DNA from: Betaproteobacteria bacterium
GTDB lineage: Bacteria; Pseudomonadota; Gammaproteobacteria; Burkholderiales; SG8-41
DNA length: 64,000 bases
Assembly (NCBI GenBank): GCA_046339595.1
Contig: JBKDUF010000048.1
Span: forward strand, 4,351-68,350
Direction: 5' to 3'
Shown here: piece by piece, positions 5,078 through 45,217 of the stretch
Layout: each line of letters opens with the position of its first letter
How positions within the stretch are numbered: the first letter of the stretch is position 1
The notes under the pieces: model-generated
Seen by the model: the letters and a program-made list of their open reading frames with translations, nothing else
What the model was told of the DNA's origin: nothing
Database searches by the model: none
Made by a program: the position numbers and the translations under genes

Positions 5078-5096
5078 GGTGCCTGGATTAAATTAT

Positions 5097-5116
5097 CAAT
5101 AAAAACAAATACTTAT
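5097..5116 (+). repeat. AT-rich intergenic motif, copy A (CAATAAAAACAAATACTTAT)
   Basis: Exact 20-mer shared with copy D and, in reverse orientation, 19/20 with copy C. It lies between the prpD-like stop and the dsbA-like start, flanked by ATTAAAT direct repeats. Confidence 0.8.
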
Positions 5117-5145
5117 TAAATCAATACGATTGAGGGAGCGCCACC

Positions 5146-5793
5146 ATGGCCGAACGCCTGCAGATCGACATCGTTTCCGACGTGGTTTGACCCTGGTGCT
5201 TCATCGGCAAGCGCAAGCTGGAAGCTGCGCTGAAACAGTTCACCGAACTGTATCCCGATGATCCCGAGCCGGCCGTGCGCTGGCTGCCGTTCCAGTTGAA
5301 TCCGGGCCTGCCGCCCGAAGGCATTTCGCGCGCCGACTATATTTTCCGCAAGTTCGGCGACCGCGACAGCTCGCGCTACGACCGCGTGGCAGGCGTCGGC
5401 AAAAGCGTCGGCCTTGACATGGCTTTCGACAAAATCCAGGTGCAGCCGAACACGGTCCGCGCACACCGGCTGATCCACCATGCCGGCGAACTTGGCAGCC
5501 AGGATGCGGTGGCCGAAGCACTGTTCCGCGCCTATTTCTGCGAAGGCGCCAACCTGACCGACATCACGGTGCTGGCGCGCTATGCGGCGCAGGCTGGCCT
5601 TGACCGCGCGGCCACCGAGGCCTTTTTGCGCAGCGACGAGGGCGCGGACCTGATCCGCGCCGCGGATGCCGAGGCGCGCCAGGCCGGCATTGAGGGTGTG
5701 CCGTTTTTCATCGTCAATCGCACCATCGGATTGTCCGGAGCGCAGGACCCCGAGGTGCTGCTGCAGGCCATGCAGCAGGCCCGCGCCGCCTAA
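5146..5793 (+). CDS. DsbA/FrnE-like thiol:disulfide oxidoreductase with in-frame TGA at the redox motif (Sec candidate or nonsense-disrupted)
   Basis: ATG 5146 follows a GAGGGA Shine-Dalgarno. It reads MAERLQIDIVSDVV-TGA(5188..5190)-PWCFIGKRKLEAAL..., in frame with track ORF 5275..5793. The TGA sits where the family has the first Cys of CPWC. The downstream part is DsbA-like (EGVPFFIVN). Confidence 0.7.
5196..5230 (+). promoter_or_regulatory. candidate SECIS-like hairpins downstream of the in-frame TGA
   Basis: There are two alternative hairpins. One is GUGCUU/AAGCGC (5196..5214, loop CAUCGGC). The other is GCGC-A-AGCU/AGCU-GCGC (5211..5230, loop GGA). Their loops lie about 14-32 nt after the UGA. 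They were folded by eye only. Confidence 0.3.
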
Positions 5794-5804
5794 GTCCCGC
5801 AGCC

Positions 5805-7265
5805 ATGAGCCAATCCGCTGGATACCGCCACGCGCTAAAGGCGGGGACCACGCTCAACGAGTACCGCGTGGAGTCGGTGCTCGGCGCCGGCAGTTTCTGC
5901 ATCACCTACCTTGCGAGGGATGTCCACCTCGACAAGCCGGTGGCGATCAATGAGTATCTGCCGCGGGACCTCGCGCTGCGCGCGCTCGACGGCAGCGTGG
6001 CGCCGGTTTCCACCGCTCACCGCTTCGATTACCAGTGGGGGCTCGACCGGTTCATTCAGGAGGCGCGCGCCCTGGCACGCGTCAGCCATCCGCATATCGT
6101 GCGCGTACACCGCTATTTAGAGCTTAACGGCACCGGCTACATGGTGATGGACCATGAGCAAGGCGAGTCGCTGACCCAGTACCTGGAGCGAGTCCCGCTG
6201 CCGCCGGAAGATGAAATACGCCGACTGCTGATGCCACTGCTCGATGGCCTTGCCGCAATACACGCTGAGAACATCCTGCACCGCGATATCAAGCCCGCCA
6301 GTATTTTCATCCGCAGCGATGCGCAGCCCGTGCTGCTGGATTTTGGCGCGGCGCGCGCCGTCGGCAGCGCGACGCGCAGCCTGACCGCTGTGCTGACGCA
6401 GGGTTACGCGCCCCTCGAGCAATACTCGCCCGACGGCAAACCGGGACCATGGTCGGACCTGTATGCCCTGGCGGGGGTGCTCTTCCTCATGGTAACCGGC
6501 CGCAATCCGCCGGACGCCGTGACACGGCTGCAACTCGATACGGTGCCTGCAGCACTGCATGCTGCGCGAGGCCGCTACAGCGCGGTACTGCTGCAGACCA
6601 TCAGCCGAGGGCTGACGGTGAATGCGGGATCACGGCCACAGAGCGTGGCCGGTTGGCGCGCGTTGCTGGAACCCGCGCCAGTGCATGGCCAGGCGGGTAC
6701 TGCCCCGACCACGGCAGTTATCGGTGCGGCCTTGAAGACTGTCGTCAAGAGTCCGGCGGCAGGCGCCCAGACCACGGTGCGCACTGCGGTGTCCGTGCCC
6801 GACCACAGCGAGGCGTGGAAGCGCCTGACCCGGGCGGTTTTCTGGCTGCTCGCCATCAGCATTGGCATCAGCTGGTACGTGAAGCGCGAAACCGATCCGG
6901 CACCAGCACCCGCAATCGCTGCGCCTTCGGCGAAACGCGCGCCGGTGCAAGTCGAGGTTGTGCAGGCCCCGGCTCTCGAGGAGCTTCCGGTGTCACCTGC
7001 GATCGCAGCCCCTCCGGCTGATGTCGTGTTGGTGAAACCGGTCGAACTGTCCCAGGGGCGTGTACCCGAGCGTATGGCCAGCGAATTCCGCGGTGCAGAC
7101 CGTGACGGCGACGGTTATCTTGCGCCCGCTGAAGTGGAGGAACGTTTTCCGCTTATCGCGAAAGAACTCGCTAAAGTCGATCGCGATGGCGACGGCCTAA
7201 TTTCGATCGAAGAATTCGCTGAGTGGCGCCTTCAGCCGGTCGAACGCCGGCCGCTGCGCAAATAG
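5805..7265 (+). CDS. Hanks-type Ser/Thr protein kinase with one TM segment and a C-terminal EF-hand pair
   Basis: Kinase motifs are present (GAGSFCITYLA, HRDIKPASIF, DFGAAR, GYAPLEQ). A TM segment (AVFWLLAISIGISWYV) is followed by a Pro/Ala-rich linker and two DxDxDG loops (DRDGDGYLAPAEVEE, DRDGDGLISIEEF). Confidence 0.85.
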   Translation: MSQSAGYRHALKAGTTLNEYRVESVLGAGSFCITYLARDVHLDKPVAINEYLPRDLALRALDGSVAPVSTAHRFDYQWGLDRFIQEARALARVSHPHIVRVHRYLELNGTGYMVMDHEQGESLTQYLERVPLPPEDEIRRLLMPLLDGLAAIHAENILHRDIKPASIFIRSDAQPVLLDFGAARAVGSATRSLTAVLTQGYAPLEQYSPDGKPGPWSDLYALAGVLFLMVTGRNPPDAVTRLQLDTVPAALHAARGRYSAVLLQTISRGLTVNAGSRPQSVAGWRALLEPAPVHGQAGTAPTTAVIGAALKTVVKSPAAGAQTTVRTAVSVPDHSEAWKRLTRAVFWLLAISIGISWYVKRETDPAPAPAIAAPSAKRAPVQVEVVQAPALEELPVSPAIAAPPADVVLVKPVELSQGRVPERMASEFRGADRDGDGYLAPAEVEERFPLIAKELAKVDRDGDGLISIEEFAEWRLQPVERRPLRK

Positions 7266-7639
7266 CGCCGGGTATCGCAGTCCTCGCTGCGCCCATCAAA
7301 CTGCCGCAAAGTTGACGTGCAAACCTTCATCCTTTGTGACTTTTTGCCATCGGAAAGGTGCTGTAATGACAGCGGGTTGAGCAGGGTAAGCGGGTTGCGT
7401 CGCGCCTCAACGCAACCCGACTGCGCCGCCAGGGCCATGATGTCGCGAAGCTCGCCCGAGCACTGCAAAAGGCCAGGCAGGCGGGATGCAGCCCTCACGT
7501 TATCTGCGCACCGTCCTCCAGCGCCAGTGGAGCCCAGGCTCCGGGCGTATCGCCGAAGTCGCCACGGCTCTGCGCCTTGGTGATCTGGCGTTCGCTCTGC
7601 AGGTTTGGCAGGTATGCGGCGACGGGTATTGCGGACACA

Positions 7640-8494
7640 TCAGCGGTGCAGCAGGAAATCACGAACTGCTGCGATCTGGTCGCTGGCCATGAGGGCGGGC
7701 GCATGTCCCACGCCGGAGAATTCGACCAGCCGTGATCTGGGGCCGCGCAGTGTCATGTCCCTGGCGGTTTCGCGCAGCAACAGGTCGGATTCGGCGCCGC
7801 GCAACAGCAGCGTCGGACAGGTGATTGCGTCGTAAACGTTCCAGAGCAGGATATCCTGCGCTGCGGCCTTGCGGAGGGCTAAGGCGATGTCAGGGTCATA
7901 GATTACCCCCCAGCGACCATCAGGGTGCCTCCGCGCATTGTGCTCGGCGAGGTGGCGCCATTGGGCGTCGTTCAGCGGACCAAAGCTTGCAAATACCCGG
8001 CGAATGTAACGCTCGAAATCCTCGATGCATTCAAAACGCGGATCCTCGCCGACATATCTGCCAATGCGTTCCATCGAGACTTTCGGGATCATCGCGCCGA
8101 CGTCATTCAGCACCAGGCGGCGTATCGGGGTGCCAGGGCGGGCAGCCAGCAGCATGCCGAGCATGCCGCCCATCGAAGTGCCAACCCAGTGAATTTCACG
8201 CGCGCCCTGCGCGGTGACCCGCGCGATCAGCGCGGTCATGTCGTTCATGTATTGCGGATACCCGTAATCCTCGGGCTGGGGCAGCCAGTCGCTGCGGCCG
8301 CGGCCGGCGATGCTGACGCAGACCACGCGCAGGTCATCCTCAAGCGCTTCGGCCAGGGCATCGAAGTCGCGGCAATTGCGCGTCAGGCCATGCACGCAGA
8401 TCAGCACGCGCGGATGATTCATATCTCCCCAATCAGTGTAATGCAGCCGGTGGAAACCGGCGCGGTTCAGGCAGAGCAGTTCACCGTTTCTCAT
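7640..8494 (-). CDS. alpha/beta hydrolase fold protein
   Basis: Start chosen at MRNGELLCLN (ATG 8494). It has the HG oxyanion motif (VHGLTRNCRDF), a nucleophile elbow GTSMGG and a C-terminal GHAP. Confidence 0.8.
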   Translation of the reverse strand: MRNGELLCLNRAGFHRLHYTDWGDMNHPRVLICVHGLTRNCRDFDALAEALEDDLRVVCVSIAGRGRSDWLPQPEDYGYPQYMNDMTALIARVTAQGAREIHWVGTSMGGMLGMLLAARPGTPIRRLVLNDVGAMIPKVSMERIGRYVGEDPRFECIEDFERYIRRVFASFGPLNDAQWRHLAEHNARRHPDGRWGVIYDPDIALALRKAAAQDILLWNVYDAITCPTLLLRGAESDLLLRETARDMTLRGPRSRLVEFSGVGHAPALMASDQIAAVRDFLLHR

Positions 8495-8525
8495 CCGCTT
8501 TTCGATGGCTGTTGTATTTGAAAAA

Positions 8526-9497
8526 TTACCTGAGGCCGAGCAACAACAGCCCCCAGGACCCAAGGCCCAGGAAGGCGATCAGGTGAACCCAGGCCCAGAT
8601 CCGGTAGCGCCGCCCCAGGTTGTCTGGCATCTCATTGGCGAGCAGGAACAGCCGGCGGTCGCGCGGCTTGCGCAACAGGTGCACGCCTTCGGTCTGCGCG
8701 CCAAACTGCTCGTGGTGGCGCTTGCGCACCTCTCCGATAGCGGCCAGCCGCGCCTGCCCCCACTCTTCCAGGCTGATCTTGCCGTCGCGGTCGGCATCAA
8801 AACGCTGCAGCAGCATTTGCGGAGTGTTTTTCCACTCCGTGATCAGCGCGCTGACATCGAAATTCTCGTCGGCGGCGCTCAGCACATTGCCGCTGTGCGT
8901 GGTGAATTCACCGATCGCGTACACCGGGCCTTCGGGCAGCAGCAGCCATTCGGTATAGCGGCGACCGCTCTCCTTCCACTGCTTGCGATGGCTGCTTACC
9001 ACCTCGGCGCCGTCAGGCGAGATTACACAGGCACCGGTGGCGTCCACCAGCAGGAAGTGATCGATGCTGGTGTTCTCTTCAACCGTGCTCCACTTGTTAT
9101 TGCTGTCCTGTTCTTCGACGGTGTAGTGATACCAGCAGCAGGCCCGCAAACTGACTGGTGAGCGTACGGTTGAACCGTCGAGCAGGCGGCCCACGCCGAA
9201 GAGCTCGACATACCCTTGAGCGGCAGAGGCAATATGCGATGTCGGCAGGTCGTGAATGGCACGGTAGCGGCGGGTGTTGCCGATCCAGGCAAAAAAGCTG
9301 ACCACACTCATCGCCAGCAGTGCCCAAGGCCAGCTTTGGGGGTTCTGGTTTTGCAGCGCGATGGCCAGGATGATCGCGTGCAGCCCGCCGGAGAGCAGGA
9401 TCGGCCCGCGGCCGCGGTAACCCGCGAGGCTGAAGGCTGAGGCGTTCAAGTGGAGACGGATTCGGGCAAGATGCGTATCCGGGGGCAGAAAGATCAA
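8526..9497 (-). CDS. membrane protein with GIDE-like domain and an EF-hand loop
   Basis: It has N-terminal TM segments and a GIDE-like core (VELFGVGR...SPVSLRACCWYHYTVEE), then an EF-hand DADRDGKISLEEW and a C-terminal TM. It lies next to lemA, a common pairing. The start is uncertain (TTG at 9497). Confidence 0.55.
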   Translation of the reverse strand: MIFLPPDTHLARIRLHLNASAFSLAGYRGRGPILLSGGLHAIILAIALQNQNPQSWPWALLAMSVVSFFAWIGNTRRYRAIHDLPTSHIASAAQGYVELFGVGRLLDGSTVRSPVSLRACCWYHYTVEEQDSNNKWSTVEENTSIDHFLLVDATGACVISPDGAEVVSSHRKQWKESGRRYTEWLLLPEGPVYAIGEFTTHSGNVLSAADENFDVSALITEWKNTPQMLLQRFDADRDGKISLEEWGQARLAAIGEVRKRHHEQFGAQTEGVHLLRKPRDRRLFLLANEMPDNLGRRYRIWAWVHLIAFLGLGSWGLLLLGLR

Positions 9498-9588
9498 ACC
9501 CCTCTACCCGATCAGCGGGGAGAGGGTTGGGCTCAAGTGACGGCTTGGGCCGGAGCAGAGGGTCGGCTATCAGCCTTCAATTGCGCGA

Positions 9589-10164
9589 TCACGCGCTGAA
9601 TAGCTGCTTGAAATCCACGTCCTTGCGTTCTTCCTCGCTGAACTCGAGCAGTTGCGCGGCCTTGAAGCCGAGCAGGCGGGCGACGATCAGGTCCGGAAAC
9701 TGGTCGATGCGAACGTTGTTGATGTTCACCGACTCGTTGTAGAACTCGCGGCGGTCGGCGATGGAGTTTTCCAGCGCCGAGATGCGCGTCTGCAGCTGCT
9801 GGAAAGTCTGGTTGGCCTTCAGGTCGGGATAGGCCTCGGCCAGCGCGAACAGGCTTCCAAGTGCAGCCCGCAATCCGCCCTCGGCCTGGCCAAGCGCCGG
9901 GATGTTCTGCGTCTCACGGGCGGTAAACACCTTCGAGCGTGCTTCGATCACCCGCGTCAGGGTGTCCTGCTCGAATTTCATGTACTGTTTGCAGGTCTCC
10001 ACCAGCTTGGGCAGCTCGTCGTGGCGCTGCTTGAGCAGAACGTCGATATTGGCCCAGGCCTTTGATACGTTGTGCTTGATCTGCACCAGCGCGTTGTAGA
10101 TGGTGATGCCGTAGACCAGCACGACGACAACGACGGCGAGGCTTAGGATGGTGACAAATTCCAT
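9589..10164 (-). CDS. lemA: LemA family protein
   Basis: 191 aa with an N-terminal TM, then YNALVQIKHNVSKAWANIDVLLKQRHDELPKLV, typical of LemA. Confidence 0.9.
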   Translation of the reverse strand: MEFVTILSLAVVVVVLVYGITIYNALVQIKHNVSKAWANIDVLLKQRHDELPKLVETCKQYMKFEQDTLTRVIEARSKVFTARETQNIPALGQAEGGLRAALGSLFALAEAYPDLKANQTFQQLQTRISALENSIADRREFYNESVNINNVRIDQFPDLIVARLLGFKAAQLLEFSEEERKDVDFKQLFSA

Positions 10165-10243
10165 TCGAGTTCTCCCTGGATGACTTCCGCGGACAATTGT
10201 ATAGCAGCCCCGGGGACTAATTGCACTCCAGCCGGCAACCCCT

Positions 10244-17438: not shown

Positions 17439-18029
17439 TTGGTTGCCCTGTGGTATCTGCTGCTGCTCGCCCCCTTTGTTGCACTCGCGGTGCTGTGGCT
17501 GAACTACCGGCGCAAACAGGCGGCGCGTGAACGTGAGTCGATGCAGCGCTGGCAGCGCGTGGTCGAGGCACGGCCTGCAATCAGCGGCGAGCCTTCAGTC
17601 CCTGCGCCAGCCACTGCCGCCCACCGGCTGCGGCCGCGTTTGCTGGAACCCGCCGATACCCTGCTGTTCCGCCTGCTTGCACTGAGCTTGTCGGATCACG
17701 ACGTGTTTGCCGGGGTTTCGGTCGACCAGATCCTGGTGCCAGGGACCTCGCTCACCGGGCTGGAGCGCGAAGCCCGCTTGCGCGCCTGGTCGCGGATGCG
17801 CATTGATTTCCTGGTCTGCGACAAGGGGCTGCAGCCGTGCGTGGCGGTGCTGGTCGATGCCGTTGACGAACGCATGGCCCTGGTCGAGGTCCTGCGGGCT
17901 TCGGGCTTGCGCTATGTGACCCTGACCCGCAGCAGCCTGCCGGGCCGCCACCAGATGCGCGCAGTGGTCCTGGGAGAGGGCACACCGGCGGCCTCCCGTT
18001 CCAGCCCGAATTCCAACCCGGATTCATAA
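17439..18029 (+). CDS. DUF2726-like protein with N-terminal TM segment
   Basis: Has an N-terminal TM segment and a C-terminal region (RIDFLVCDKGLQPCVAVLVD) resembling DUF2726. The start is uncertain (TTG). Confidence 0.45.
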   Translation: MVALWYLLLLAPFVALAVLWLNYRRKQAARERESMQRWQRVVEARPAISGEPSVPAPATAAHRLRPRLLEPADTLLFRLLALSLSDHDVFAGVSVDQILVPGTSLTGLEREARLRAWSRMRIDFLVCDKGLQPCVAVLVDAVDERMALVEVLRASGLRYVTLTRSSLPGRHQMRAVVLGEGTPAASRSSPNSNPDS

Positions 18030-18252
18030 CCGTTTGATTCAAAAAGGGTAATAAATCGGGCAGGGCGCCATAAAGCGCTTGACGGCGACTTTAGGTCCCC
18101 GTATAACGGCAGCGCGTGTTTGGTTTCAAGTGCTTGAAAGTCAGCGGTTTCCGGTGTTTCAGTGGCTGGTGTGCGTGCTTTTGGGGCTGTGAGATTTAAA
18201 TACGATATCCGGCTTGATGCCGGTTTAATCCAACCTCAAAAGGAACAGCAAC

Positions 18253-20316: not shown

Positions 20317-20332
20317 GTCTCAAAAAATAAAC

Positions 20333-20352
20333 CAATAAAAACAATAAGTTAT
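20333..20352 (+). repeat. AT-rich intergenic motif, copy B (CAATAAAAACAATAAGTTAT)
   Basis: A gapless alignment to the copy A/D 20-mer matches 16/20, with mismatches at positions 14, 16, 17 and 18. It lies between the efp stop and its terminator. Confidence 0.6.
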
Positions 20353-20356
20353 ATGA

Positions 20357-20386
20357 AAACGCCGCAGTGACCCTGCGGCGTTTTTG
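20357..20386 (+). terminator. rho-independent terminator after efp
   Basis: CGCCGCAG/CTGCGGCG stem followed by TTTTT. Confidence 0.8.
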
Positions 20387-22217: not shown

Positions 22218-22486
22218 CAGCTTGTCCATGCCTTTCGGCACGGGCTGGACTATGCCTTCATCCCGGTTGCACGGGATGCGGAGCGTGTTATCCGCTTGCG
22301 CGAATCCTAGTATCTGCCCCCCGGATGCAACCCGGTCGGCAGATCTATGAGTCTCTACAGGGCAGGCCTGAAGTTGGCCCTCTTCCTACCCCTCGGCGTT
22401 GCCATGCCGTCCTTGGCGAGACGGTGCAGGTTTCACCGATGTGAGCTCCGTTTACATTCTGCTCTTGCGAACAGACGCGACCATTG
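22218..22486 (-). mobile_element. group I intron-like insert (269 nt, no ORF) in the tmRNA T-loop
   Basis: The 5' exon ends in U and the insert ends in G. A P1-like helix CGAU/GUCG places a U:G wobble at the junction. A P4-like pairing UCGGUG/CGCCGA and a P5-like hairpin CCGUC/GACGG are present, plus several GNRA-capped hairpins (GCAA, GAAA). The segments CGGUGAAACCU, AUGGCAACGCCGAG and GUAGAGACU resemble the Azoarcus tRNA-Ile IC3 intron as I recall it. Confidence 0.75.
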
Positions 22487-22710
22487 ATCGAACCCGCGTC
22501 CGCAAGCCCTCCACAGTCAGGACTACATGCTTAGCCTGGTTGTTTGGGTTTCGCCTCGCACCCGCCAGCCGGCAGGCTGATGTTTGGCTAGTCGCTTCGA
22601 CGGATCCGCAGGATTAAGCGACCAAACCCTGCAGAGAGGCTGATGTGAATGACGTTGCACCCCTTTCGGGGCCTGACCCATCAGCAGATCAGTGCAACGT
22701 CTAGCCGGTG

Positions 22711-22743
22711 TTAGGCGGCTAGAGAATAACGCTCGTCGTTGGC
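22711..22743 (-). other. tmRNA tag reading frame (ANDERYSLAA, then stop)
   Basis: Read directly from the minus strand. It resembles proteobacterial ANDE..ALAA degradation tags. Confidence 0.8.
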
Positions 22744-22886
22744 GTGTATAGATTTCCAGCGGATTTACAAGGTGACTGGACCTTGGCATGCCCTGTGCTG
22801 CTTTGTGACCCACGTCGAAACCAGGTCGCCCCCAATCTGACGCTTCGACATTATCGCACGGCAGGGGTTCCCTGCCGGATCGAGTG

Positions 22887-23693: not shown

Positions 23694-23800
23694 GAAATCG
23701 GGCAGGGAAGGCTGACAGCAAGCAGCTCGGGGAGATGCCCAACTGTAGCGTGCTTGAAAATATCCTGAAAATAACAATTTATGCATTAATAATCAATTGG

Positions 23801-24448
23801 TTATGTAACTAAGCCAAAGATATCGAGCGCGGTGTCGACAACATGGTCGGCCCCCCAATCTTCGGGCTTGCTACCGTTGAGGTAGCCAAAACGCACGGCA
23901 ATGGTGGTCATCCCGGCGGCACGGCCGGCGATGATGTCGCGCTCGTCGTCACCGACATAGGCGCAGCGCGCTGGCGGCACGCCGATGGCGGCTGCTCCGG
24001 CCAGCAACGGTGCCGGGTGTGGTTTCATGTGTGCTGTGGTGTCGCCGCCGATGAGGCAGCCCGCGCGTTCAGCGTAGCCCAGCTGCTGCAGCAGCGGCAG
24101 GGCCAGTTGCTCGGATTTGTTGGTCACGATACCCCAGCACAGGCCGGCGGCTTCGAGGCGGTCAACCAGCTCGGCCATTCCCGGAAACGGGGTGCTGTGG
24201 ATGCAGAGGTTGCGCCGGTAAAGATCCAGGAATTCCTCGCGCATGGCGGGGTAGTCCGGATGATCGGGGCCGATGCCGAAACCGGCGCCGAGCAGTCCGC
24301 GAGCCCCCAGCGAGGTGACGCGCCGGGTTTCGCTGAGGGGCACCGGAGACAGTCCGCGGTCGGCCCGCATGCGGTTGACCGCGGCACCGAGGTCGGGGGC
24401 GGTATCGGCGAAGGTGCCATCGAGGTCAAACAGGACGGCGCCAATCAT
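23801..24448 (-). CDS. gph: phosphoglycolate phosphatase (HAD superfamily)
   Basis: The start [16 protein letters not shown] carries the HAD motif I, and [15 protein letters not shown] is motif III. The start overlaps the ubiG stop (ATGA). Confidence 0.85.
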
Positions 24449-33803: not shown

Positions 33804-33823
33804 ACCCTGGCGCGCTGATTTTT

Positions 33824-33843
33824 TTAAGTATTTGTTTTTATTG
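33824..33843 (-). repeat. AT-rich intergenic motif, copy C (reverse orientation)
   Basis: The minus strand reads CAATAAAAACAAATACTTAA, 19/20 to copies A and D. It ends 11 nt before the hisC ATG. Confidence 0.75.
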
Positions 33844-33854
33844 AATAATAATTG

Positions 33855-34957: not shown

Positions 34958-35857
34958 ATGACCGCGAAACCGCGCGTTGCCAAAATCAGGTTCAACAAGC
35001 TGGTGGTGATCGGCGTCGGGCTGATCGGCGGGTCCTTCGCGCTGGCGCTGAAAAAAGCAAAGCTGGTGAAGCAGGTGGTCGGCGTCGGCCGCAGCCGCGG
35101 CAACCTGAAGGATGCGCTGCGCCTGGGTGTCATCGATCAGGCCGAAACCGATGCAGCCAAGGCCGTGGCTGGCGCCGACCTGGTGCTGGTCGGCGCGCCG
35201 GTGGGGCAGATGCCGGGTATCTTTGCGCGCATCGCGCCGGCACTGTCGCCGCAAACGGTGGTCACCGATGCCGGCAGCACCAAGCAGGACGTGATTGCCG
35301 CGGCACGGCGCCACCTAGGCGCGCATTTTTCGATGTTCGTGCCCGCGCATCCGATCGCCGGCACCGAGCACAGCGGCGCTGCCGCCGCCTTTCCGGAACT
35401 GTTCCGCGGGCGCAACCTGATCCTGTTGCCGCAGCACGAAACCAGGGCTTCCGCCCTGCGCCTGGTGAAATCGGCCTGGCAGGCCTGCGGCGCGCGCATC
35501 GTATGGCTGGATGCCGCCGAACACGACGAGATATTCGGCGCCGTCAGCCATCTGCCGCATGTGATTGCCTTCGCGCTGATGAACCAGCTGGGCCGCCGTC
35601 GCGACGCGAAACGCCTGCTCGGTTTTTCCGGTGGCGGGCTGCGCGACACCGTGCGCATCGCCGGCAGTTCCCCGGAAATGTGGCGCGACATCTGTATTGC
35701 CAACCGGGAGGCGCTGCTGCCGCTGCTCGATGGCAGCATCGCAGAGCTTGAGGCCGCGCGCGACGCGCTGGCCAATGCCGACGGTGACGCGCTGGAGGCG
35801 ATGGTCCGCGGCGGCCGGGAAGCCCGCGCGCGGTGGCTGCTCAAGAACGCGAAATGA
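34958..35857 (+). CDS. tyrA: prephenate dehydrogenase
   Basis: Rossmann motif [16 protein letters not shown] and the [10 protein letters not shown] motif. Confidence 0.85.
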
Positions 35858-37179: not shown

Positions 37180-37847
37180 TGGCCATGGCGGGCACCCAGG
37201 TCCCGGTCATCGCCATTGACGGCCCTTCGGCCTCGGGCAAGGGTACCGTGGCAGCGGCCGTGGCGCAGCACCTCGGCTGGCATTACCTCGACAGCGGCGC
37301 GCTGTACCGGATTGTCGGCCTGGCTGCCGGGGATCGCGGACTGGATCTCGACAATGATGCAGAAATATCCCGTATCACATTGAATCTAAACATAAAATTT
37401 GATGATGACCGGGTGCTGCTCGACGGTCTCGATGTCGGCCAGCGGATCCGGGGTGAGGCGGCCGGGGCCGCTGCCTCCCGGGTCGGCGCCTTGCCCGGCG
37501 TGCGCCACGCCTTGCTGGCGCTGCAACAGGGCTTCCGCCGGCCCCCGGGACTGGTCGCCGACGGGCGCGACATGGGGTCAGTGGTGTTCCCCGATGCGGT
37601 GCTCAAAATCTACCTCACCGCAAGCGCGGAAGAGCGGGCCGAGAGACGCTATAAGCAGTTGATCGCAAAGGGAACGGGTGCTAGTATGGCCGCCCTTTTG
37701 CGGGGTATCCGCGAGCGTGATTTTCGCGACATCCATCGCGCTGCGGCCCCTTTGCTGAAGTGTCCTGACGCCGTCGAAATCGATTCCACCGCCATGCCGG
37801 TGGAAGCGGTGGTGGCCCGGGTCCTGCAGTTGTTTCAAAGGCGTTAA
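37179..37847 (+). CDS. cmk: cytidylate kinase
   Basis: IAIDGPSASGKGTVA P-loop and DSGALYR motif. Confidence 0.9.
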   Translation: MAMAGTQVPVIAIDGPSASGKGTVAAAVAQHLGWHYLDSGALYRIVGLAAGDRGLDLDNDAEISRITLNLNIKFDDDRVLLDGLDVGQRIRGEAAGAAASRVGALPGVRHALLALQQGFRRPPGLVADGRDMGSVVFPDAVLKIYLTASAEERAERRYKQLIAKGTGASMAALLRGIRERDFRDIHRAAAPLLKCPDAVEIDSTAMPVEAVVARVLQLFQRR

Positions 37848-37949: not shown

Positions 37950-39674
37950 ATGATGAAAACCTCCCCCCAGGCCGCCCCGGCGGTTGCCACTGAAAGCTTT
38001 GCCGCGCTCTTCGAAGAGAGCCTGTCGCGCAAGGAAATGCGCATCGGCGAAGTGATTACCGCCGAAGTGATCCGCGTCGATGACAATTTCGTCGTCGTCA
38101 ACGCCGGCCTGAAGTCGGAAAGCTATGTCCCGGCTGAAGAATTCCGCAACGACCGCGGTGAAATCGAAGTCAAGTCCGGCGACTTTGTCAGTGTCGCCAT
38201 CGAATCCCTCGAAGACGGCTACGGCGAGACCCGCCTGTCGCGTGACAAGGCCAAGCGTCTTGCCGCCTGGATGGCGCTGGAAGATGCGCTGGAGAAGGGC
38301 AACATCGTCGAAGGCGTCATCACCGGCAAGGTGAAGGGCGGCCTCACCGTGATGATCAACGGCATCCGTGCCTTCCTTCCGGGTTCGCTGGTCGATACCC
38401 GTCCGGTCAAGGACACCACACCGTACGAAAACAAGCAGATGGAGTTCAAGGTCATCAAGCTCGACCGCAAGCGCAATAACGTCGTCGTGTCGCGTCGTGC
38501 CGTGCTTGAAGCCAGCCAGGGTGAAGAGCGCGCCAAGCTGCTCGAGACGCTGCGCGAAGGACTCACCGTCAAGGGCATCGTCAAGAACATCACCGACTAC
38601 GGCGCGTTCGTGGACCTCGGCGGCATTGACGGCCTGCTGCACATCACCGATCTGGCCTGGCGCCGGGTCAAGCATCCGTCCGAGATGCTCAGCGTCGGCG
38701 ACGAGGTCACCGCCAAGGTGCTCAAGTTCGACCAGGAAAAGAACCGCGTCTCGCTGGGCATGAAACAGCTGGGTGAGGATCCCTGGGTCGGCCTGTCGCG
38801 CCGCTATCCGCCCAAGACCCGCCTGTTCGGCAAGGTGTCGAACCTCACCGACTACGGCGCGTTCGTCGAGATCGAGCCGGGCATCGAAGGCCTGGTGCAT
38901 GTCTCGGAGATGGACTGGACCAACAAGAACGTGCATCCCTCCAAGGTCGTTCAGCTGGGCGACGAAGTCGAGGTCATGGTGCTCGAGATCGACGAGGACC
39001 GCCGGCGCATTTCGCTGGGCATGAAGCAGTGCATGGCGAATCCCTGGGAAGAGTTCTCGATGAACTTCAAGAAGGGCGACAAGGTGAAGGGGCAGATCAA
39101 GTCGATCACCGACTTCGGCATCTTCATCGGCCTGGCCGGCGGCATCGACGGCCTGGTGCACCTGTCCGACCTGTCCTGGAACGCGCCCGGCGAGGAGGCC
39201 GTGCGCAACTACAAGAAGGGCGAGGAATTGGAAGCCCAGGTCCTGTCCATCGATGTCGAGCGCGAGCGCATCTCGCTCGGCGTCAAGCAGCTCGAGGGTG
39301 ATCCCTTCTCGAGCTATGTCGGCGGCCACGAGAAAAATACCGTGGTGACCGGCACCGTCAAGGCGATCGATGCCAAGGGCGCCGTGATCGCGCTCGATGG
39401 CGACATGGAAGGCTACCTGCGTGCATCGGAAGTTTCGCGTGACCGCGTGGAAGACATCCGCACCAAGCTGAAAGAGGGTGACTCGGTCACGGCGATGATC
39501 ATCAACATCGACCGCAAGAACCGCACGATCAACCTGTCGATCAAGGCCAAAGACCTCGCGGAGGACACCGAAGCCATGCAGAAACTGGCTTCGGACAAGC
39601 AGGCGAGCACGGGAACGACCAATCTGGGCGCCCTGCTCAAGGCCAAGCTCGACACTGCCAATACTCAACAATAA
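37950..39674 (+). CDS. rpsA: 30S ribosomal protein S1
   Basis: 574 aa with six S1 repeats ([11 protein letters not shown]..., [24 protein letters not shown]...). Confidence 0.95.
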
Positions 39675-39692: not shown

Positions 39693-39977
39693 ATGACCAA
39701 GTCGGAGTTGATCGCGAAACTGGCCGCGCGCTATCCGCAGCTCGTGGCCAAGGACGCCGAACTGGCAGTGAAGATGATTCTGGACGCGATGGGCAAAAGC
39801 CTGTCGCAGGGCCAGCGCATCGAAATCCGCGGCTTTGGCAGTTTCGGACTCAACTACCGACCGCCCCGCACCGGGCGCAACCCGAAGTCGGGTGAACGCG
39901 TGCAGGTGCCGGCAAAGCATGTTCCGCATTTCAAGGCCGGCAAGGAACTGCGCGAGCGCGTCGACATCAAGAAATAA
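39693..39977 (+). CDS. ihfB: integration host factor subunit beta
   Basis: [17 protein letters not shown]...[26 protein letters not shown]. Confidence 0.95.
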
Positions 39978-40000
39978 CGGACGAGGCATCGTTCCCTGGG

Positions 40001-40112: not shown

Positions 40113-40400
40113 ATGCGTTACCTGAGCTGGGCCGTCAAAGGCGCGCTGTTCCTGCTGATCCTGTCCTTTGCCGTGGTCAATACCGACCCGGTAACGGTGC
40201 GCTACTACCTCGGCCATCAGTGGCAGGCACCGCTGGTGCTGGTGCTGCTGTTGGCCCTGTGCCTTGGCGCCGCCCTGGGCCTCCTGGTGGGGCTGGTGCA
40301 GACGCTGAGGCTGCGCCGGCGCATCGCCGCGCTGGAGCGCGAACTGCAGGCGCTGCGTCAGCCGCCGTCGCCGCCGCTGCCTCCCTCGGATCTTCTGTGA
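40113..40400 (+). CDS. lapA: lipopolysaccharide assembly protein A (LapA/YciS family)
   Basis: 95 aa with two TM segments, directly upstream of lapB. Confidence 0.7.
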   Translation: MRYLSWAVKGALFLLILSFAVVNTDPVTVRYYLGHQWQAPLVLVLLLALCLGAALGLLVGLVQTLRLRRRIAALERELQALRQPPSPPLPPSDLL

Positions 40401-40413
40401 GCGTGTAGAAGGC

Positions 40414-41589
40414 ATGGACATCGAACTGTGGTGGCTGCTGGCGTTGCCGCTGTTTTTCGCGCTGGGCTGGCTGGCCGCGCGCGTTGACATCCGCCAGCTG
40501 GTGTCCGAGTCGCGCCTGTTGCCGGCCTCCTACTTCAAGGGGCTCAATTTCCTGCTCAACGAGCAGCCCGACAAGGCGATCGAGGCCTTCATCGAGGTTG
40601 CTCGCGTCAACCCGCAGACCATCGAGCTGCATTTCGCCCTGGGCAGCCTGTTCCGCCGCCGTGGCGAGGTCGAGCGCGCCATCCGCATGCACCAGAACCT
40701 TGCCGAGCGCGAGGACCTTGCCCAGGAACAGAAGCTGCAGGCGGTGCTCGAGCTGGCGCAGGATTACCTGAAGGCGGGGCTGCTCGACCGCGCCGAAGAA
40801 CTGTTCCTGCGGCTGGACGGCAGCGCGCATGCCGAGGCCGCCGCGCGTTTCCTGCTCGAGATCTACGAGCAGGAACGGGACTGGCACAAGGCGATCGGCA
40901 CCGCGGAGCGTCTCGAATCGCTGACCGGCCGTTCCTACCAGAAGGAAATTGCCAATTTCGGCTGCGAGCTGGCGGCGCGTGAACTGATGCAGTCGCGACC
41001 AGCCGAGGCGCGGCCGCACCTCTCCGCGGCGCTGGGCCACCACCGGTTGTGCGTGCGCGCCAACATCCTGCTCGGCGACCTGGAGCGCGGCCTTGGCAAC
41101 AGCGCGGCGGCGATCGCCACATGGCAGCGCATCGAATCACAGAGCCCGGCCTATCTGTCGCTGGTTGCCGAGCGCCTGCTCAACGCCTACCGCGACGAAG
41201 GCAGGGCGGAAGAGGGGCTGAACCTGCTGCGCGGCTACCTCGAAAAATATCCCTCGCTGGACCTTCTCGCCATGGTGTATCGCGAGACGCTGGCCTCGGG
41301 CGGCGCTGCGGCCGCCTACCGGCTGGTGCGCGACGAAGTGCGGCGCACGCCGACGCTGCTCGGTCTGGACAAGCTGCTCGAGGCGCAGCTGCTCGAGGCG
41401 CCGCCGGAAAAGCAGCACGACCTGCAGCTGATCAAGCAGCTGATCCACCAGCACACGCGCAGCCTTGCCATGTATAAATGCGAGCACTGCGGATTTCGCG
41501 CGCGGCAGTTCTACTGGCATTGTCCGGCCTGCGGCGAATGGGAAACCTACGCCCCCAAACGTACTGAAGAGAAAGGCATCCCGGCATGA
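40414..41589 (+). CDS. lapB: lipopolysaccharide assembly protein B (LapB/YciM)
   Basis: N-terminal TM, TPR repeats and a C-terminal rubredoxin-like motif YKCEHCGF...WHCPACGEW. Confidence 0.9.
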
Positions 41590-42302
41590 GCGGCAATGCG
41601 GCCCCGCTTCACAACCCGCGCGTGATTGTTGCGCTGGATTACGCCAGCGCGGAACCGGCGCTGGCGCTGGCGGCACGGCTGGATCCGAAGGCCTGCCGCG
41701 TCAAGGTCGGCAAGGAGCTGTTCACCGTTGCAGGGCCTTCGCTGGTGACGCAGCTAGCTGCGCGGGGTTTTGACGTGTTTCTCGATCTCAAATACCACGA
41801 CATCCCGAACACCGTGGCTGCGGCCTGCAAGGCGGCGGCAGGCCTGGGCGCCTGGATGATCAATGTCCACGCCAGCGGCGGCAGCGCGATGATGCGCGCG
41901 GCACGCGAAGCGCTGGCCGTCACGTCGAAGCCGCCGCTGCTGATCGCGGTGACCGTGCTCACCAGCATGGGTGATGAAGACCTGCGCGAGATCGGTCAGC
42001 GGGAATCGGCGCCGCAGCTGGTGGAACGCCTGGCCCGCCTGACACAGGCGAGCGGTCTCGACGGCGTGGTGTGTTCGGCCCAGGAAGCGGCGCTGCTGCG
42101 CAAGGCCTGTGGCGCGGAGTTCAAGCTGGTCACTCCGGGCATCCGCCTCGCCGATGCCGGCAAGGATGACCAGAAACGCATCGTCACGCCGGCGGCGGCC
42201 GTGGCGGCGGGCGCGGATTACCTGGTGGTGGGGCGGCCGATCACCCAGGCGGCCGATCCGCTGGCGGCGCTGGCGCGGATCAATGCGGAAATCGGGGCTT
42301 GA
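41586..42302 (+). CDS. pyrF: orotidine 5'-phosphate decarboxylase
   Basis: Carries [26 protein letters not shown] and VVGRPI motifs. Confidence 0.95.
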
Positions 42303-42316
42303 GATCATCACGCGCC

Positions 42317-43291
42317 ATGAAAAATAAAACAATAAAAACAAATACTTATAAACTTCCGTCGGCGGTGCGCAGGGCGCGCGTGCTGGTGGTTGGCGACGTC
42401 ATGCTCGATCGCTACTGGTTCGGCGAGGTGAGCCGCATTTCACCGGAAGCGCCGGTGCCGATTGTCAAAGTCGACCGCATCGAGGAACGCCCGGGCGGCG
42501 CCGCCAATGTCGCACGCAATGTTTCTGCACTGGGTGCTAAGGCCGCGCTGCTGTCGGTGGTCGGGCGGGATGAAGCCGGGCGCTGCCTGAAGCAGCTGCT
42601 GCAGCAGGAGAAGGTGGCGACCAGCCTGCACACCGACGCTACGATCTCGACCACGGTCAAGCTGCGCGTGATCGGCCGCCAGCAGCAGCTGCTGCGCGCG
42701 GATTTCGAAACCCTGCCCAGCCATGAGGTGCTGGCTTCCAAGCTCAAGGACTACCAGCGTCTGCTGAAGAATGCGGACGTCGTGATCCTGTCCGATTACG
42801 GCAAGGGCGGCCTCGCACACATCGCGAAAATGATCGCGGCCGCGCGCAGCCTTGGCGTGCCGGTGCTGGTCGATCCCAAAGGGGAGGATTATTCGCGTTA
42901 CCGGGGTGCGACGCTGGTCACGCCGAACCGCGCCGAACTGCGCGCCGTTACCGGCGGCTGGACTTCCGAGCGCATGCTCGAAGCCAAGGCCCAGGCGCTG
43001 CGCCAGCGCCTCGGGCTCGGCGGCCTGCTGGTGACGCGCAGCGAAGAAGGGATGACGCTGTACCGCAAGGGCGGCAAGCGCCATGAGCCGGCACAGGCGC
43101 GCGAGGTCTATGACGTCAGCGGCGCTGGCGACACGGTGATCGCCACCATCGGCGTGATGCTGGCTGCAGGGGAGAGCATGGACAGCGCGATCCGCATCGC
43201 CAACCGTGCCGCCGGCATTGTCGTCGGCAAGTTCGGCACGGCGGTGGTGTACCCGCAGGAACTGTTCGCGGCGGCGGAGGGACAATCATGA
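42317..43291 (+). CDS. hldA: D-glycero-beta-D-manno-heptose-7-phosphate kinase (RfaE domain I)
   Basis: [17 protein letters not shown], plus a PfkB-type C-terminus ([11 protein letters not shown]). The start is uncertain: ATG 42317 translates the AT-rich motif ([12 protein letters not shown]), and GTG 42365 is an alternative. Confidence 0.8.
42330..42349 (+). repeat. AT-rich motif, copy D (CAATAAAAACAAATACTTAT)
   Basis: Exact match to copy A. It lies between the pyrF stop and the conserved part of hldA, inside the ATG-42317 N-terminal extension. Confidence 0.8.
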
Positions 43292-44286
43292 TGCATGTGG
43301 TCACCGGAGCGGCCGGATTCATCGGCGCCAACATCGTCCGCGGCCTGAATGCCATGGGTGTGGACCAGATACTGGCGGTGGACGACCTGACCCAGGGCGA
43401 CAAGTTCCGCAACCTGGTGGACTGCCGCATCGCGGACTACCTGGACAAGGACGAGTTTCTCTCGCGGCTGCGCAGCGGCGCCTTCCACGGCAGGATCAGG
43501 GCGCTGTTCCACCAGGGCGCCTGTTCAGACACGACGGCCAGCGACGGCCGCTACGTGATGGAGGTGAACTATGCCTACTCCTGCGCGCTGCTCGAATTCT
43601 GCCTTGCCGAACAGGTGCCGCTGATCTACGCATCGTCGGCGGCGACCTATGGCGCTTCGACCGAATTTCGCGAAGAGCCGGCCTGCGAGGGCCCGCTCAA
43701 TGTCTACGGCTGGTCCAAGCTGCTGTTCGACCAGCGCGTGCGGCGCCTGCCGCCGGGCGGCTCGCAGGTGGTGGGGCTGCGGTATTTCAACGTCTACGGT
43801 GACCGTGAGCAGCACAAGGGGCGCATGGCCTCTGTGGCCTGGCACTTTTTCAACCAGTTCCGTGCCGAGGGTCATGTGCGGCTGTTTGAGGGCAGCGGCG
43901 GCTACGGTGATGGCGAACAGCGCCGCGACTTCATCTCGGTCGAGGATGTCGTCAGGGTCAACCTGCACTTCCTGCGCAATCCGGACTGTTCCGGCATTTT
44001 CAACTGCGGAAGCGGCAAGGCGCAGGCCTTCAACGACGTGGCGGTGGCGGTGATCAACACGCTGCGCGGTAACGAAGGCCGGCCGGCGCTGTCGCTGGCC
44101 GAACTCCAGCAGCAGCAGCTGATCCGCTACATTCCGTTTCCCGGCGACCTGCGCGGCAAATACCAGAGCTACACCCAGGCCGACCTCGGTGCCCTGCGCG
44201 CCGCCGGCTATGGCGAACCCTTCCTGACGGTGGAGCAGGGCGTGTCGCGGTATGTGGCTCAACTGCTGGCGCGGGCAGCCGTCTGA
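43288..44286 (+). CDS. hldD: ADP-L-glycero-D-manno-heptose 6-epimerase
   Basis: [13 protein letters not shown] Rossmann motif, SSAATYG, and YGWSKLLFD (YxxxK). Confidence 0.9.
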
Positions 44287-44288
44287 GC

Positions 44289-45182
44289 ATGGCCAGGGCC
44301 TACCAGGGTCTCGATGCCTGTATCGGCAACACGCCGCTGGTGCGCCTGCAGCGCATTCCGGGTGCCACCTCGAATGTCATCCTTGCCAAGCTCGAGGGCA
44401 ACAACCCGGCCGGCTCGGTGAAAGACCGTCCGGCGCTGTCGATGATCCGCCGCGCGCAGGAGCGCGGCACGATCAAGCCCGGCGACACCCTGATCGAACC
44501 GACCAGCGGCAACACCGGCATCGGCCTTGCCATGGCAGCGGCGATCCTCGGCTACCGCATGGTGCTGATCATGCCGGAAAACCAGTCGCTGGAGCGCCAG
44601 CAGACCATGCGCGCCTTCGGCGCTGAGCTGATCCTGACGCCGAAGGAAGTGAGCATGGAGGGCGCGCGCGACCTCGCCGAGCGCATGGTGCGAGAAGGCA
44701 AGGGCGTCATGCTCGACCAGTTCGCCAATGCCGACAATCCGCTGGCGCATTACGAAGGCACCGGACCGGAAATCTGGCGTGACACCGAAGGCCGGGTCAC
44801 GCATTTCGTCTCCAGCATGGGCACCACCGGCACCATCATGGGCGTCTCGCGCCATCTCAAGGAGAAAAATCCGCGGGTGCAGATCGTCGGCTGCCAGCCG
44901 GCCGCCGGTTCGCAGATTCCGGGGATTCGCAAGTGGCCCCAGGACTATGTGCCCCGGATCTGCGACTGGCAGCGCGTGGACCGCGTGGTCGAAGTCGCGC
45001 AATCCGATGCCGAAGCCATGATGCGGCGCCTGGCACGCGAGGAAGGCATCTTCGCCGGAGTGTCTTCCGGCGGCGCGCTGTGGGCTGCACTGCAGGTTTC
45101 CTCGCAGGTGCAGGATGCGGTGATTGTGTTCATCGTCTGCGATCGTGGCGATCGCTACCTCTCTACTGGCGTTTTCGCGTAA
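44289..45182 (+). CDS. cysM: cysteine synthase B
   Basis: IGNTPLVRL, NPAGSVKDRPA (PLP-Lys) and TSGNTGI motifs; 297 aa. Confidence 0.9.
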   Translation: MARAYQGLDACIGNTPLVRLQRIPGATSNVILAKLEGNNPAGSVKDRPALSMIRRAQERGTIKPGDTLIEPTSGNTGIGLAMAAAILGYRMVLIMPENQSLERQQTMRAFGAELILTPKEVSMEGARDLAERMVREGKGVMLDQFANADNPLAHYEGTGPEIWRDTEGRVTHFVSSMGTTGTIMGVSRHLKEKNPRVQIVGCQPAAGSQIPGIRKWPQDYVPRICDWQRVDRVVEVAQSDAEAMMRRLAREEGIFAGVSSGGALWAALQVSSQVQDAVIVFIVCDRGDRYLSTGVFA

Positions 45183-45197
45183 TCGCGCCAAATGATA

Positions 45198-45217
45198 ATA
45201 AATATTTGTTTTTAAAG
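45198..45217 (-). repeat. AT-rich intergenic motif, copy E (reverse orientation, diverged)
   Basis: The minus strand reads CTTTAAAAACAAATATTTAT, 17/20 to copy A. It ends 8 nt before the GTG start at 45226. Confidence 0.6.

Follow-up and report, generated by a model that had tools for sequence, protein, structure and literature searches.

Motif copies and related features in the window

Five copies of an AT-rich 20-mer were located in the window, by which the whole analysed stretch of 64 kb is meant. The match search placed them on the coordinates and strands that an earlier note had given, with exact matches at 5097 (+) and 42330 (+), one mismatch at 33824 (-) and three mismatches each at 20333 (+) and 45198 (-); the identity of the copy after efp, put there at 16/20, was actually 17/20. 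The 20-mer was not matched in 100 dinucleotide-preserving shuffles, which set its chance expectation at zero. The neighbouring genes had also been named in agreement with Pfam (PrpD-like, DSBA-like, EF-P, PheA, class I/II aminotransferase, PyrF, PfkB kinase, PALP enzyme and exonuclease).

Copy A (5087..5123, +) was a full-strength copy of 53.6 bits in the spacer between the PrpD-like and DSBA-like genes, and the same spacer was occupied in G024, G003, G009 and G045. Copy B (20323..20359, +; 57.5 bits) lay between the efp stop codon and the efp terminator hairpin; it occurred in only 3 of 27 species (G000, G045 and G021), the others having an unrelated GC-rich spacer. Copy C (33817..33853, -; 56.1 bits) filled the pheA–hisC spacer, and its A-tract end adjoined the hisC ATG. 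Copy D (42320..42356, +; 55.7 bits) reached over the start of the PfkB/HldA-like kinase gene and made up its first ~12 codons, so that, contrary to the earlier placement in a spacer, it is not strictly intergenic. Copy D was found in this species only among the species compared; in G003 these codons were GC-rich (MTANKTDTTYSL), and in G009 the N-terminus was different. Copy E (45191..45227, -; 49.1 bits), between the cysM-like and exonuclease genes, was kept in G003 and G009.

Weaker and degenerate sites were also present. A look-alike suspected at about 23761–23800 was a genuine weak copy at 23773–23812 (+; 30.3 bits; 37-bp block at 23775..23811), with 49 bits at the equivalent place in G003, while nothing in a second suspected stretch, 49100–49125, reached 12 bits. 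A weak copy of 22.4 bits (37364..37403, -) was located in AT-rich codons of the cytidylate kinase gene cmk, the product of which had a Pfam match over its full length; scores at the equivalent place were 39 bits (G003) and 32 bits (G009). The decayed copy at 18018..18057 (-; 17.3 bits) retained AATCAA-ACGG-TTAT and had lost its AT-rich left half, and copies of 39–61 bits were found at the equivalent place in G024, G003, G009, G045 and G010. The spacer at 8495..8525 held a degenerate remnant of similar length to the full copies of its relatives (45–57 bits in G003, G009 and G045), G000 and G024 both having substituted sequence of equal length. The window also contains ihfB (39693..39977, +), which encodes IHF beta; IHF is the proposed reader protein, and the gene for its alpha subunit, ihfA, is on contig C15.

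Structure of the element

The 20-mer was the centre of an AT-rich block of ~37 bp with sharp edges, which ran from 10 bases 5' of the 20-mer to 7 bases 3' of it, and the similar flanks reported earlier are real as part of this block. The family consensus of the block was AAAAAWWATT-CAATWAAAWCAA-N4-TTAT-RAAWAW. Each copy had a three-part layout, which comprised an A-tract (AAAAAWWA), about one AT-rich helical turn (TTCAATAA) and an IHF core, W-A-[T/A]-C-A-A-N4-T-T-R. In the logo of the genome's copies, positions 6–18 were A-A-[A 68% / T 31%]-C-A-A-N4-T-T-[A 96% / G 4%], and three of the four N positions carried the lowest information in the core. The A-rich block occupied positions -10 to -3, and a CAAT that was near-invariant at positions 0–3 lay outside the classical IHF consensus.

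No dyad or inverted symmetry was evident in the 37-bp consensus, and the logo of copies with flanks contained no conserved sequence beyond the block. RNA folding was absent at the copies and their immediate flanks (about 50–56 nt; fold z-scores -0.7 to +1.5), and Rfam gave no match at any copy, which speaks against an intrinsic terminator or a structured RNA. Terminator-like hairpins were not enriched adjacent to copies.

Genome-wide number and placement

The host is a freshwater bacterium with a genome of 3.3 Mb and 64.6% GC. About 389 copies were found in the genome at a cut-off of at least 30 bits, and the reversed matrix, used as the control, gave 9; the recurrence first noticed in the window is therefore far above the expectation for AT-rich spacers. 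Of 233 AT-rich islands in the genome, with a median length of 37 bp, 225 (97%) were motif copies. The density was one copy per ~7.5–8.5 kb, and the copies were spaced more evenly along the chromosome than chance. Called ORFs contained the centres of only 82 of the 389, and half of these 82 lay no more than 60 nt from an ORF end. Copies in coding sequence persisted despite a GC3 of ~85%, which points to selection.

The copies were balanced between the strands (198 + and 191 -). Within co-directional spacers, 94 of 199 were oriented as the genes, and divergent, convergent and co-directional spacers carried copies at equal rates. The earlier argument that mixed orientation speaks against a simple promoter thus holds throughout the genome. 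A transcription or translation element (a promoter, an UP-like element, an AU-rich translation enhancer or a leader) would account for the many copies adjoining start codons. Some copies extend over the first codons of genes, the starts of six or seven Bug/TctC genes fall within the motif, and the hisC ATG lies 10–11 nt from the core without a Shine-Dalgarno sequence. A promoter-like hexamer pair had also been pointed out in copy A. However, the best hexamer pair that could be placed by eye in the consensus was ~13 bp apart, not the 17 of sigma-70 geometry, RNA structure was absent, and neither the lack of orientation bias nor the equal frequency in convergent spacers, where no promoter is needed, is in line with such a role. 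Moreover, copies between stop codon and terminator cannot serve a downstream gene, as is the case for the efp copy because of exactly this position. An element of this kind is highly improbable.

Three roles had been offered in the earlier note with no choice among them: a site bound by a nucleoid protein or a global regulator, an uptake or recognition sequence, and the footprint of a miniature mobile element. The first is favoured by the present results and the other two are not. A sequence that serves DNA uptake or self-recognition in natural transformation would be short, conserved, over-represented and lineage-specific, as the motif is, but ~390 copies amount to about one per 8.5 kb, and almost all of them lie outside coding sequence, whereas uptake sequences are expected at about one per kb and often within genes. 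In addition, the unit is 37 bp long, AT-rich and degenerate at N4; families that are unrelated also contain it, and the IHF sites of phage lambda match it closely. The motif can hardly be a sequence of this type.

Conservation and turnover among relatives

Some copies were kept at orthologous spacers, and others were gained or had decayed by point substitution. In about 25 species (L001–L024 and L032), copy C lay at the same place and in the same orientation, and the distance from ATTG to ATG was fixed at 10–11 nt in nearly all of these orthologues. The positions conserved among them were those conserved among the genome's own copies, with N4 free, which likewise points to selection. Where copies were lost, the spacer kept its length and its bases were substituted; empty sites were substituted spacers of similar length with no clean excision. 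One gain resembled AT-enriching substitutions in homologous codons.

These patterns bear on the proposal of a miniature mobile or selfish repeat (MITE- or REP-like), or remnants of one, that spread by transposition. High copy number, sharp edges, location between genes and the different sites occupied in different species would all suit a repeat of this kind. On the other hand, neither terminal inverted repeats nor target duplications were found at the copies, their flanks are not conserved, sites kept in about 25 species are constrained at functional positions only, and both decay and gain of copies proceed in place through substitutions. The even spacing is also the opposite of clustered insertion. 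Spread by transposition is therefore very unlikely.

Across the order, the same 20-mer was found at 0–5 per genome (~146 matches in all, against ~24 for the reversed control), and large copy numbers were confined to three genera, which fall into two taxonomic families; the motif family was present in g1, g19 and f8. The large families in two separate lineages shared one common consensus, with the third core base mostly T in family f8 and A in 68% in this genus. The motif family was absent in g18 and g20 despite nearly identical IHF. In G085 there were 0 copies in 188 kb, and in G327 there was one strong match (42 bits) in 400 kb; IHF was almost identical in both.

IHF and HU proteins

The two PF00216 genes of the genome best matched E. 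coli IHF alpha and beta (E 3.6e-40 and 1.2e-32), with HU at about 1e-17, and the best PDB match of ihfB was E. coli IHF beta (1ihf_B, E 1.2e-32). The DNA-binding arm sequences of both subunits were almost unchanged, and that of ihfB included the conserved RTGRNP. A canonical HU gene was found neither in this genome nor in any family-bearing genome checked. HU loss alone is not sufficient for the family, because G085, G078 and others are without HU and carry no copies. IHF alone does not explain the expansion either, since relatives with almost identical IHF are without the family.

Fit to IHF sites and the phage lambda scan

The IHF consensus, WATCARNNNNTTR, and the sequence of the lambda H' site were taken from the literature (PMC2709558). 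The family has the core WATCAA-N4-TTR with a variable N4, an upstream A-tract and an asymmetric block of 37 bp against the ~30–35 bp of an IHF site, and both IHF subunits, alpha and beta, are encoded in the host genome with their arms conserved. A matrix trained only on this genome's copies was scanned over all 48.5 kb of lambda. The full matrix ranked cosB I1 (65–104) second, attP H2 eighth and attP H' fourteenth, and a core-only scan placed H1 at rank 8. The A6 tract of H' aligned to matrix positions -8 to -3, on the A-tract of the family. Ranks 1, 4 and 5 were located upstream of pL and cII, at putative IHF sites. The cosB I1 site lies between R3 and R2 (PMC4669245).

The core, the A-tract, the block length, the recovery of the lambda sites and the canonical IHF of the host point to the regulator site among the roles first proposed. 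As judged from sequence, the motif copies are probably IHF sites of high affinity that serve as fixed bends in the DNA. Several observations weigh against this assignment. At the third core base, 68% of the copies have A, whereas the classical consensus has T. The information in the motif is far above the need for ~400 sites and above that of E. coli IHF sites. Relatives with almost identical IHF, and some genomes without HU, have no such family.

This excess, CAAT included, could reflect a second or different reader. A different DNA-binding protein, clade-restricted or unrecognised, might bind the motif alone or with IHF, the likeness to IHF sites being partial or coincidental. The near-invariant CAAT outside the classical consensus would suit such a protein, and so would the patchy distribution of the family, which is present in g1, g19 and f8 and missing from g18 and g20 despite nearly identical IHF. 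However, the full matrix, with its CAAT region, brought cosB I1 and further IHF sites of lambda to the top of the ranking, and the 20-mer occurs at low copy number in many families of the order. The common consensus in two separate lineages fits a shared reader, whereas a private one needs horizontal transfer. No candidate protein was found, short of a proteome-wide search. A different reader is thus unlikely.

Proposed mechanism and significance

IHF reads its sites mostly via the minor groove and kinks DNA at two steps 9 bp apart, by which the DNA is made to turn through over 160 degrees in a U shape. By analogy with IHF–DNA complexes, IHF would fold each copy in the same way, through minor-groove reading, two kinks and a U-turn. 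The ~390 sites would then place fixed sharp bends at gene boundaries, which would act at the DNA level regardless of gene direction. Their downstream role may lie in nucleoid architecture, in supercoil-domain barriers or in local effects on neighbouring genes.

The even spread of the copies, together with the loss of HU in the lineage, makes a sequence-encoded chromosome scaffold possible. In HU-less lineages, this tentative and rather doubtful arrangement would consist of ~400 near-optimal predicted IHF sites, ~7.5 kb apart with short-range repulsion, that form hairpin bends or supercoil-domain barriers. It may have originated independently in two families. If the scaffold exists, nucleoid domain boundaries would be genetically specified and readable from sequence.

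If the copies do bind IHF, they would offer a natural system for the role of fixed DNA bends in chromosome organisation, in which it could be asked whether specific IHF sites offset the loss of non-specific HU, and the positions of the architectural sites would be directly readable from sequence. The motif is also of practical use in the uncultured freshwater Burkholderiales that carry it, as a marker of gene boundaries and of some true start codons.

Comparison with known systems

IHF sites themselves are textbook knowledge. What stands out is the combination: a full-length IHF-type site that makes up 97% of the AT-rich islands, ~390 near-identical free-standing copies, even spacing, codon usage overridden, and a large family only in HU-less lineages. 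To our knowledge, no described genome has all these features together. The lambda sites attP H' and cosB I1 resemble the family in their A-tract, about one helical turn and WATCAA-N4-TTR, over ~35 bp with no dyad symmetry; the sequence of cosB I1 is AAATAAAAACATTAAGTTATG, and that of the family consensus is CAATAAAAACAATAAGTTATG. In lambda, each site has a single purpose within a recombination or packaging complex, whereas the family consists of free-standing chromosomal copies, with the extra conservation of CAAT and often A where T is canonical.

The RIP/RIB elements of E. coli, in which an IHF site lies in BIME/REP palindromes, are likewise repeated extragenic sites at gene boundaries. Their IHF sites are flanked by REP palindromes, whereas the family has no conserved flanks or hairpins and a copy number per Mb several times higher. 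The Correia elements of Neisseria are also abundant intergenic repeats with an IHF-type site in Betaproteobacteria. They are MITE-like, ~100–155 bp long, with terminal inverted repeats and a TA target duplication, whereas the family is a bare 37-bp site that lacks both and evolves in place. The ChIP-defined IHF sites of E. coli and Salmonella share the core consensus, the location mostly between genes and the reader that is proposed here. These enterobacterial sites vary among themselves, show weak conservation and coexist with HU, whereas the members of the present family are near-identical, dominate the AT-rich islands at even intervals and reach large numbers only in lineages without HU.

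An AT-rich element in the window and the genome

The GC content of the window was 57–68%, and the earlier note had described five copies of an AT-rich 20-mer in it: in the PrpD-like/DSBA-like spacer (copy A), after efp (copy B), between pheA and hisC (copy C), between pyrF and the conserved part of hldA (copy D) and in the cysM-like/exonuclease spacer (copy E). A search with CAATAAAAACAAATACTTAT at ≤3 mismatches returned exactly these places and strands, and the search found nothing in 100 dinucleotide-preserving shuffles. The likeness of the aligned copies ran past the 20-mer into the AT-rich flanks and ended abruptly. The genome-wide pattern search that had been proposed was carried out on the assembly (3.31 Mb, 142 contigs, 64.6% GC), in which the window corresponds to C48:4351–68350; the 20-mer occurred 6 times exactly, 96 times at ≤3 mismatches and 240 times at ≤5 mismatches. 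The logo of the 96 copies was a discrete block from -10 to +26, AAAAAWWATT CAATWAAAWCAA WNAS TTAT RAAWAW, and background composition was regained within 2 bases on each side.

A matrix of 40 columns was built in three iterations, and 30 bits was taken as the cut-off for a copy. The scores were clearly bimodal: 389 copies scored at least 30 bits, compared with 9 for the reversed matrix, which gave none above 40 bits. Moreover, 225 of the 233 AT-rich stretches (≥26 A+T per 30 bases; median length 37 bp) were copies, and an AT-rich island in this genome was practically always this element. The matrix scan of the window added a weak sixth copy at 23773–23812 (30 bits) and decayed or weak matches at 18018–18057 (17 bits) and 37364–37403 (22 bits). 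A further look-alike suspected near 49100 scored below 12 bits and was not upheld. The motif is a real feature of the genome, well beyond chance expectation.

Placement relative to genes and spacing along the chromosome

Genes were called with a crude GC3-based ORF picker (2,996 ORFs, 88% of the genome), which placed 41 copies deep inside ORFs; the individually checked cases were cmk and hldA. One rival explanation of the element is a transcription or translation signal. The strands of the copies were 198 plus and 191 minus, and the orientation of the genes was shared by 94 of the 199 copies in co-directional spacers. Another 47 copies lay in divergent and 43 in convergent spacers, and the share of spacers with a copy was 9.6% (co-directional), 12% (divergent) and 10.9% (convergent). 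These statistics on orientation and spacer type led us to reject the promoter reading. No enrichment of terminator-like hairpins was found beside the copies (25% vs. 38% in convergent and 10% vs. 14% in co-directional spacers), and the copies showed neither an RNA fold nor an Rfam family. The metatranscriptome runs containing the sequence of the organism covered only rpsA–ihfB and yielded no readable transcript end at any of the copies. Because the copies were orientation-free, neutral to spacer type and non-folding, the element, if active, would act on double-stranded DNA irrespective of gene direction. The copy-bearing spacers barely exceeded the element itself (median 87 nt co-directional, 49 nt convergent), and where the A-tract end faced the 3' end of a gene, the stop codon was usually within the edge of the element.

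Some copies reach into coding sequence. The GC3 of the genome was approximately 85%, so AT-rich codons were conspicuous. Six or seven paralogues of approximately 320 aa, with a protein identity of only 40–54%, started with ATGAATAAAATCAAATACTT and had motif-encoded MNKIKYL-like residues (C11:14555, C11:9420, C12:23902, C65:14301, C100:5546, C44:308 and C41, genome contigs). These proteins resemble Bug/TctC binding proteins, with which they presumably belong; the motif formed their Shine–Dalgarno spacer, start codon and charged signal-peptide start. A weak copy inside cmk was common to three species. In more distant metagenome genomes (L025–L040), copies at ~500–670 were kept over the acidic C-terminus and stop of a gene (...DDEEDQEKLF-TAA), which, judged by its position, is presumably gyrA, and copies at ~5960–6090 lay inside a downstream gene, encoding DKYINEIKYL.

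Along a contig, copies followed one another more regularly than at random. The coefficient of variation of the distances between neighbours was 0.67, compared with 0.93 for random gene boundaries and 1.0 for uniform placement. Only 16% of neighbours were less than 3 kb apart (null 35–38%, z -7.6 to -9.1), and the median distance was 6.4 kb (null 4.3–4.5 kb). This regularity stood at 25, 30 and 40 bits. The orientations of neighbouring copies were not coupled (125 of 275 pairs alike).

Conservation and turnover across relatives

The organism is an uncultured freshwater member of Burkholderiales, whose DNA was detected in lake and river metagenomes and whose nearest public records are metagenome-assembled genomes. 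Each of the 24 other sampled species of the genus had 42–228 matches to the 20-mer pattern, compared with 0–1 for the reversed control. The check at orthologous spacers, also suggested earlier, was run for copy C, which was kept at an identical place and orientation in approximately 25 species (PheA 77–91% identical). ATTG lay 10–11 nt from the hisC ATG in nearly all of them, and the pheA stop lay at a variable distance. The conserved positions of these orthologues, CAATWAAAWCAA-N4-CTTA with N4 free, matched those conserved among the genome's own copies.

A mobile repeat is a second rival, according to which the copies would have been inserted. In a synteny comparison with five species (76–84% DNA identity), copies A, C and E were conserved, and no clean insertion or target duplication was found at the compared sites. 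Of 27 species, only 3 had copy B, which there separates the efp stop codon from the terminator hairpin; its site in the remaining species was unrelated GC-rich sequence. At ~8510 and ~18060, relatives had strong copies that are here decayed through substitution, with the spacer length unchanged. The gene of the PfkB/HldA-like kinase begins with copy D, which supplies its first 12 codons, and another genome (G003) had apparently the same codons there in a GC-rich version (MTANKTDTTYSL). Copies thus appear to be gained and lost in place, through point substitution, and a mobile element was rejected because of this in-place decay and gain together with the anatomy of the element.

Several other features were observed in the window and in relatives. 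Two relatives (L014 and L018) had an extra insert of ~60 nt with a hairpin (GACAAAAACAGGCCTCTGGCGAGGCTGTCATGTTTTT) between the pheA–hisC element and the hisC start, and a third (L015) had a larger insert there, carrying two further copies. In G009, another genome, AT-rich sequence extended over at least ~115 nt directly behind a tRNA 3' end (C22 ~1400–1500, corresponding to ~48600 in the window); it is absent from the window, included a palindromic pair of motif-like halves and may be an integrated element. At 50700–50816 (-), Rfam reported an ALIL pseudoknot, which is known as the frameshift element in insertion sequences of the IS3 type. Its surroundings (50–56 kb) had a lower GC content of 57–60% and adjoined tRNA genes at 48506–48592 and 50457–50546, and this stretch is probably an insertion sequence or small island. 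A full-length tmRNA model was matched at 22485–22825 (-) with 139 bits. The DSBA-like gene directly after copy A, 5146–5793 (+), carried a TGA in frame where the first Cys of the CxxC motif would be (DVV-TGA-PWCF). When this codon was translated as Sec or Cys, the product matched PF01323 over its full length (E 1.9e-40), and it is likely a selenoprotein.

Similarity to IHF sites

Positions 6–18 of the logo fitted the IHF consensus WATCAA-N4-TTR (PMC2709558). Three of the four N positions had the lowest information in the core, the last base was always a purine, and an A-tract lay upstream. As an independent check, the whole phage lambda genome was then scanned with the matrix trained on this bacterium only, with uniform background and non-overlapping ranks. 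Places upstream of pL ranked first (35743–35782) and fourth (35642–35681), cosB I1 second (65–104), a place just upstream of cII fifth (38319–38358), and H2 and H' of attP eighth and fourteenth; H1 ranked eighth when the core was used alone. The pL and cII places are probably IHF sites that had been described earlier (Giladi and Oppenheim; Craig and Nash). The A6 tract of H' aligned onto the A-tract of the family. In cosB, the IHF site I1 is flanked by R3 and R2 (PMC4669245), and PMC2709558 gives the H' site with its sequence.

The only two genes of the PF00216 family (shared by IHF and HU) in the genome matched E. coli IHF alpha and beta (1ihf) with E values of 3.6e-40 and 1.2e-32, compared with ~1e-17 for HU, and the IHF arm sequences were almost unchanged. 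These sequence comparisons lead us to conclude that the element represents a near-optimal IHF-type site of full length, which IHF would be expected to bind. The first role proposed in the earlier note, sites of a nucleoid or global regulator protein, was right and can be made specific as IHF through the consensus fit, the lambda ranks and the canonical IHF genes. Further rival explanations are a second or different reader protein and an uptake sequence.

Distribution of the family and absence of HU

The order was surveyed in 301 genomes (61 families, 141 genera). The motif family was abundant only in the home genus g1, in g19 of the same taxonomic family (261 matches) and in g8, a genus of another family, f8 (57–142). 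All other surveyed genomes had 0–5 matches each, in total ~146 compared with ~24 for the reversed control (hand-summed from the table). The motif family was missing from two further genera of the home family, represented by G085 and G327: no copy and no AT island was found in 188 kb of G085, and 400 kb of G327 held five islands with one strong match (42 bits). In a single-gene RpsA tree, the motif-less G085 fell within the g19 and g1 clade, and f8 stood elsewhere beside a motif-less family with moderate support. Hence, the motif family either had two origins or underwent repeated loss. The common consensus in separate lineages and the low-level presence across the order would fit a reader common to all.

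A changed specificity of IHF was also considered and was rejected, since no IHF residue was consistently restricted to family-bearing lineages. IHF beta of the motif-less G085 and G327 was almost identical to that of the source genome, and an Asp-to-Ile/Val change in the IHF alpha arm was present in g19 and f8, not in g1. Family-bearing and family-lacking relatives were not separable by IHF sequence.

A search of 25 g1 species, including the source genome, yielded ihfA and ihfB but no canonical HU gene. Every family-bearing genome examined had IHF alpha and beta only, with canonical HU absent; the apparent exceptions were a second IHF-beta-like gene (G016), one unclassified extra gene (G098) and a divergent, HU-like gene that lay on a contig of 2.2 kb in a genome with 8% contamination (G012). 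All 15 family-lacking families of the first sample had 3–5 PF00216 genes, and the best-scoring one was canonical HU in all 11 of the 15 whose best match was read. The rule that absence of HU entails the motif was ruled out by genomes that were HU-less yet motif-less (G085, G078, G051, G195/G233, G247 and G280/G316), which, like f8, had two PF00216 genes only. The link between HU loss and the motif is one-way. Moreover, shared ancestry reduces the cases to two or three independent lineages, and HU absence is only suggestively associated with the motif family.

Proposed working and comparison with known IHF sites

Approximately 390 near-optimal IHF-type sites lie at the gene boundaries of this genome, evenly spaced, under selection and with no preferred orientation, and IHF is its sole DNABII protein. 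IHF would occupy the copies and fold the DNA at each of them into a U-turn, which would make them fixed architectural bends, perhaps the boundaries of loops or supercoil domains, and those overlapping 5' ends (hisC, hldA and the Bug genes) may affect these genes locally.

The lambda I1 site (AAATAAAAACATTAAGTTATG) is nearly the consensus of the family, including its upstream part. IHF sites are known; what is new is a clade-restricted, genome-filling and evenly spaced family of them in an HU-less background.
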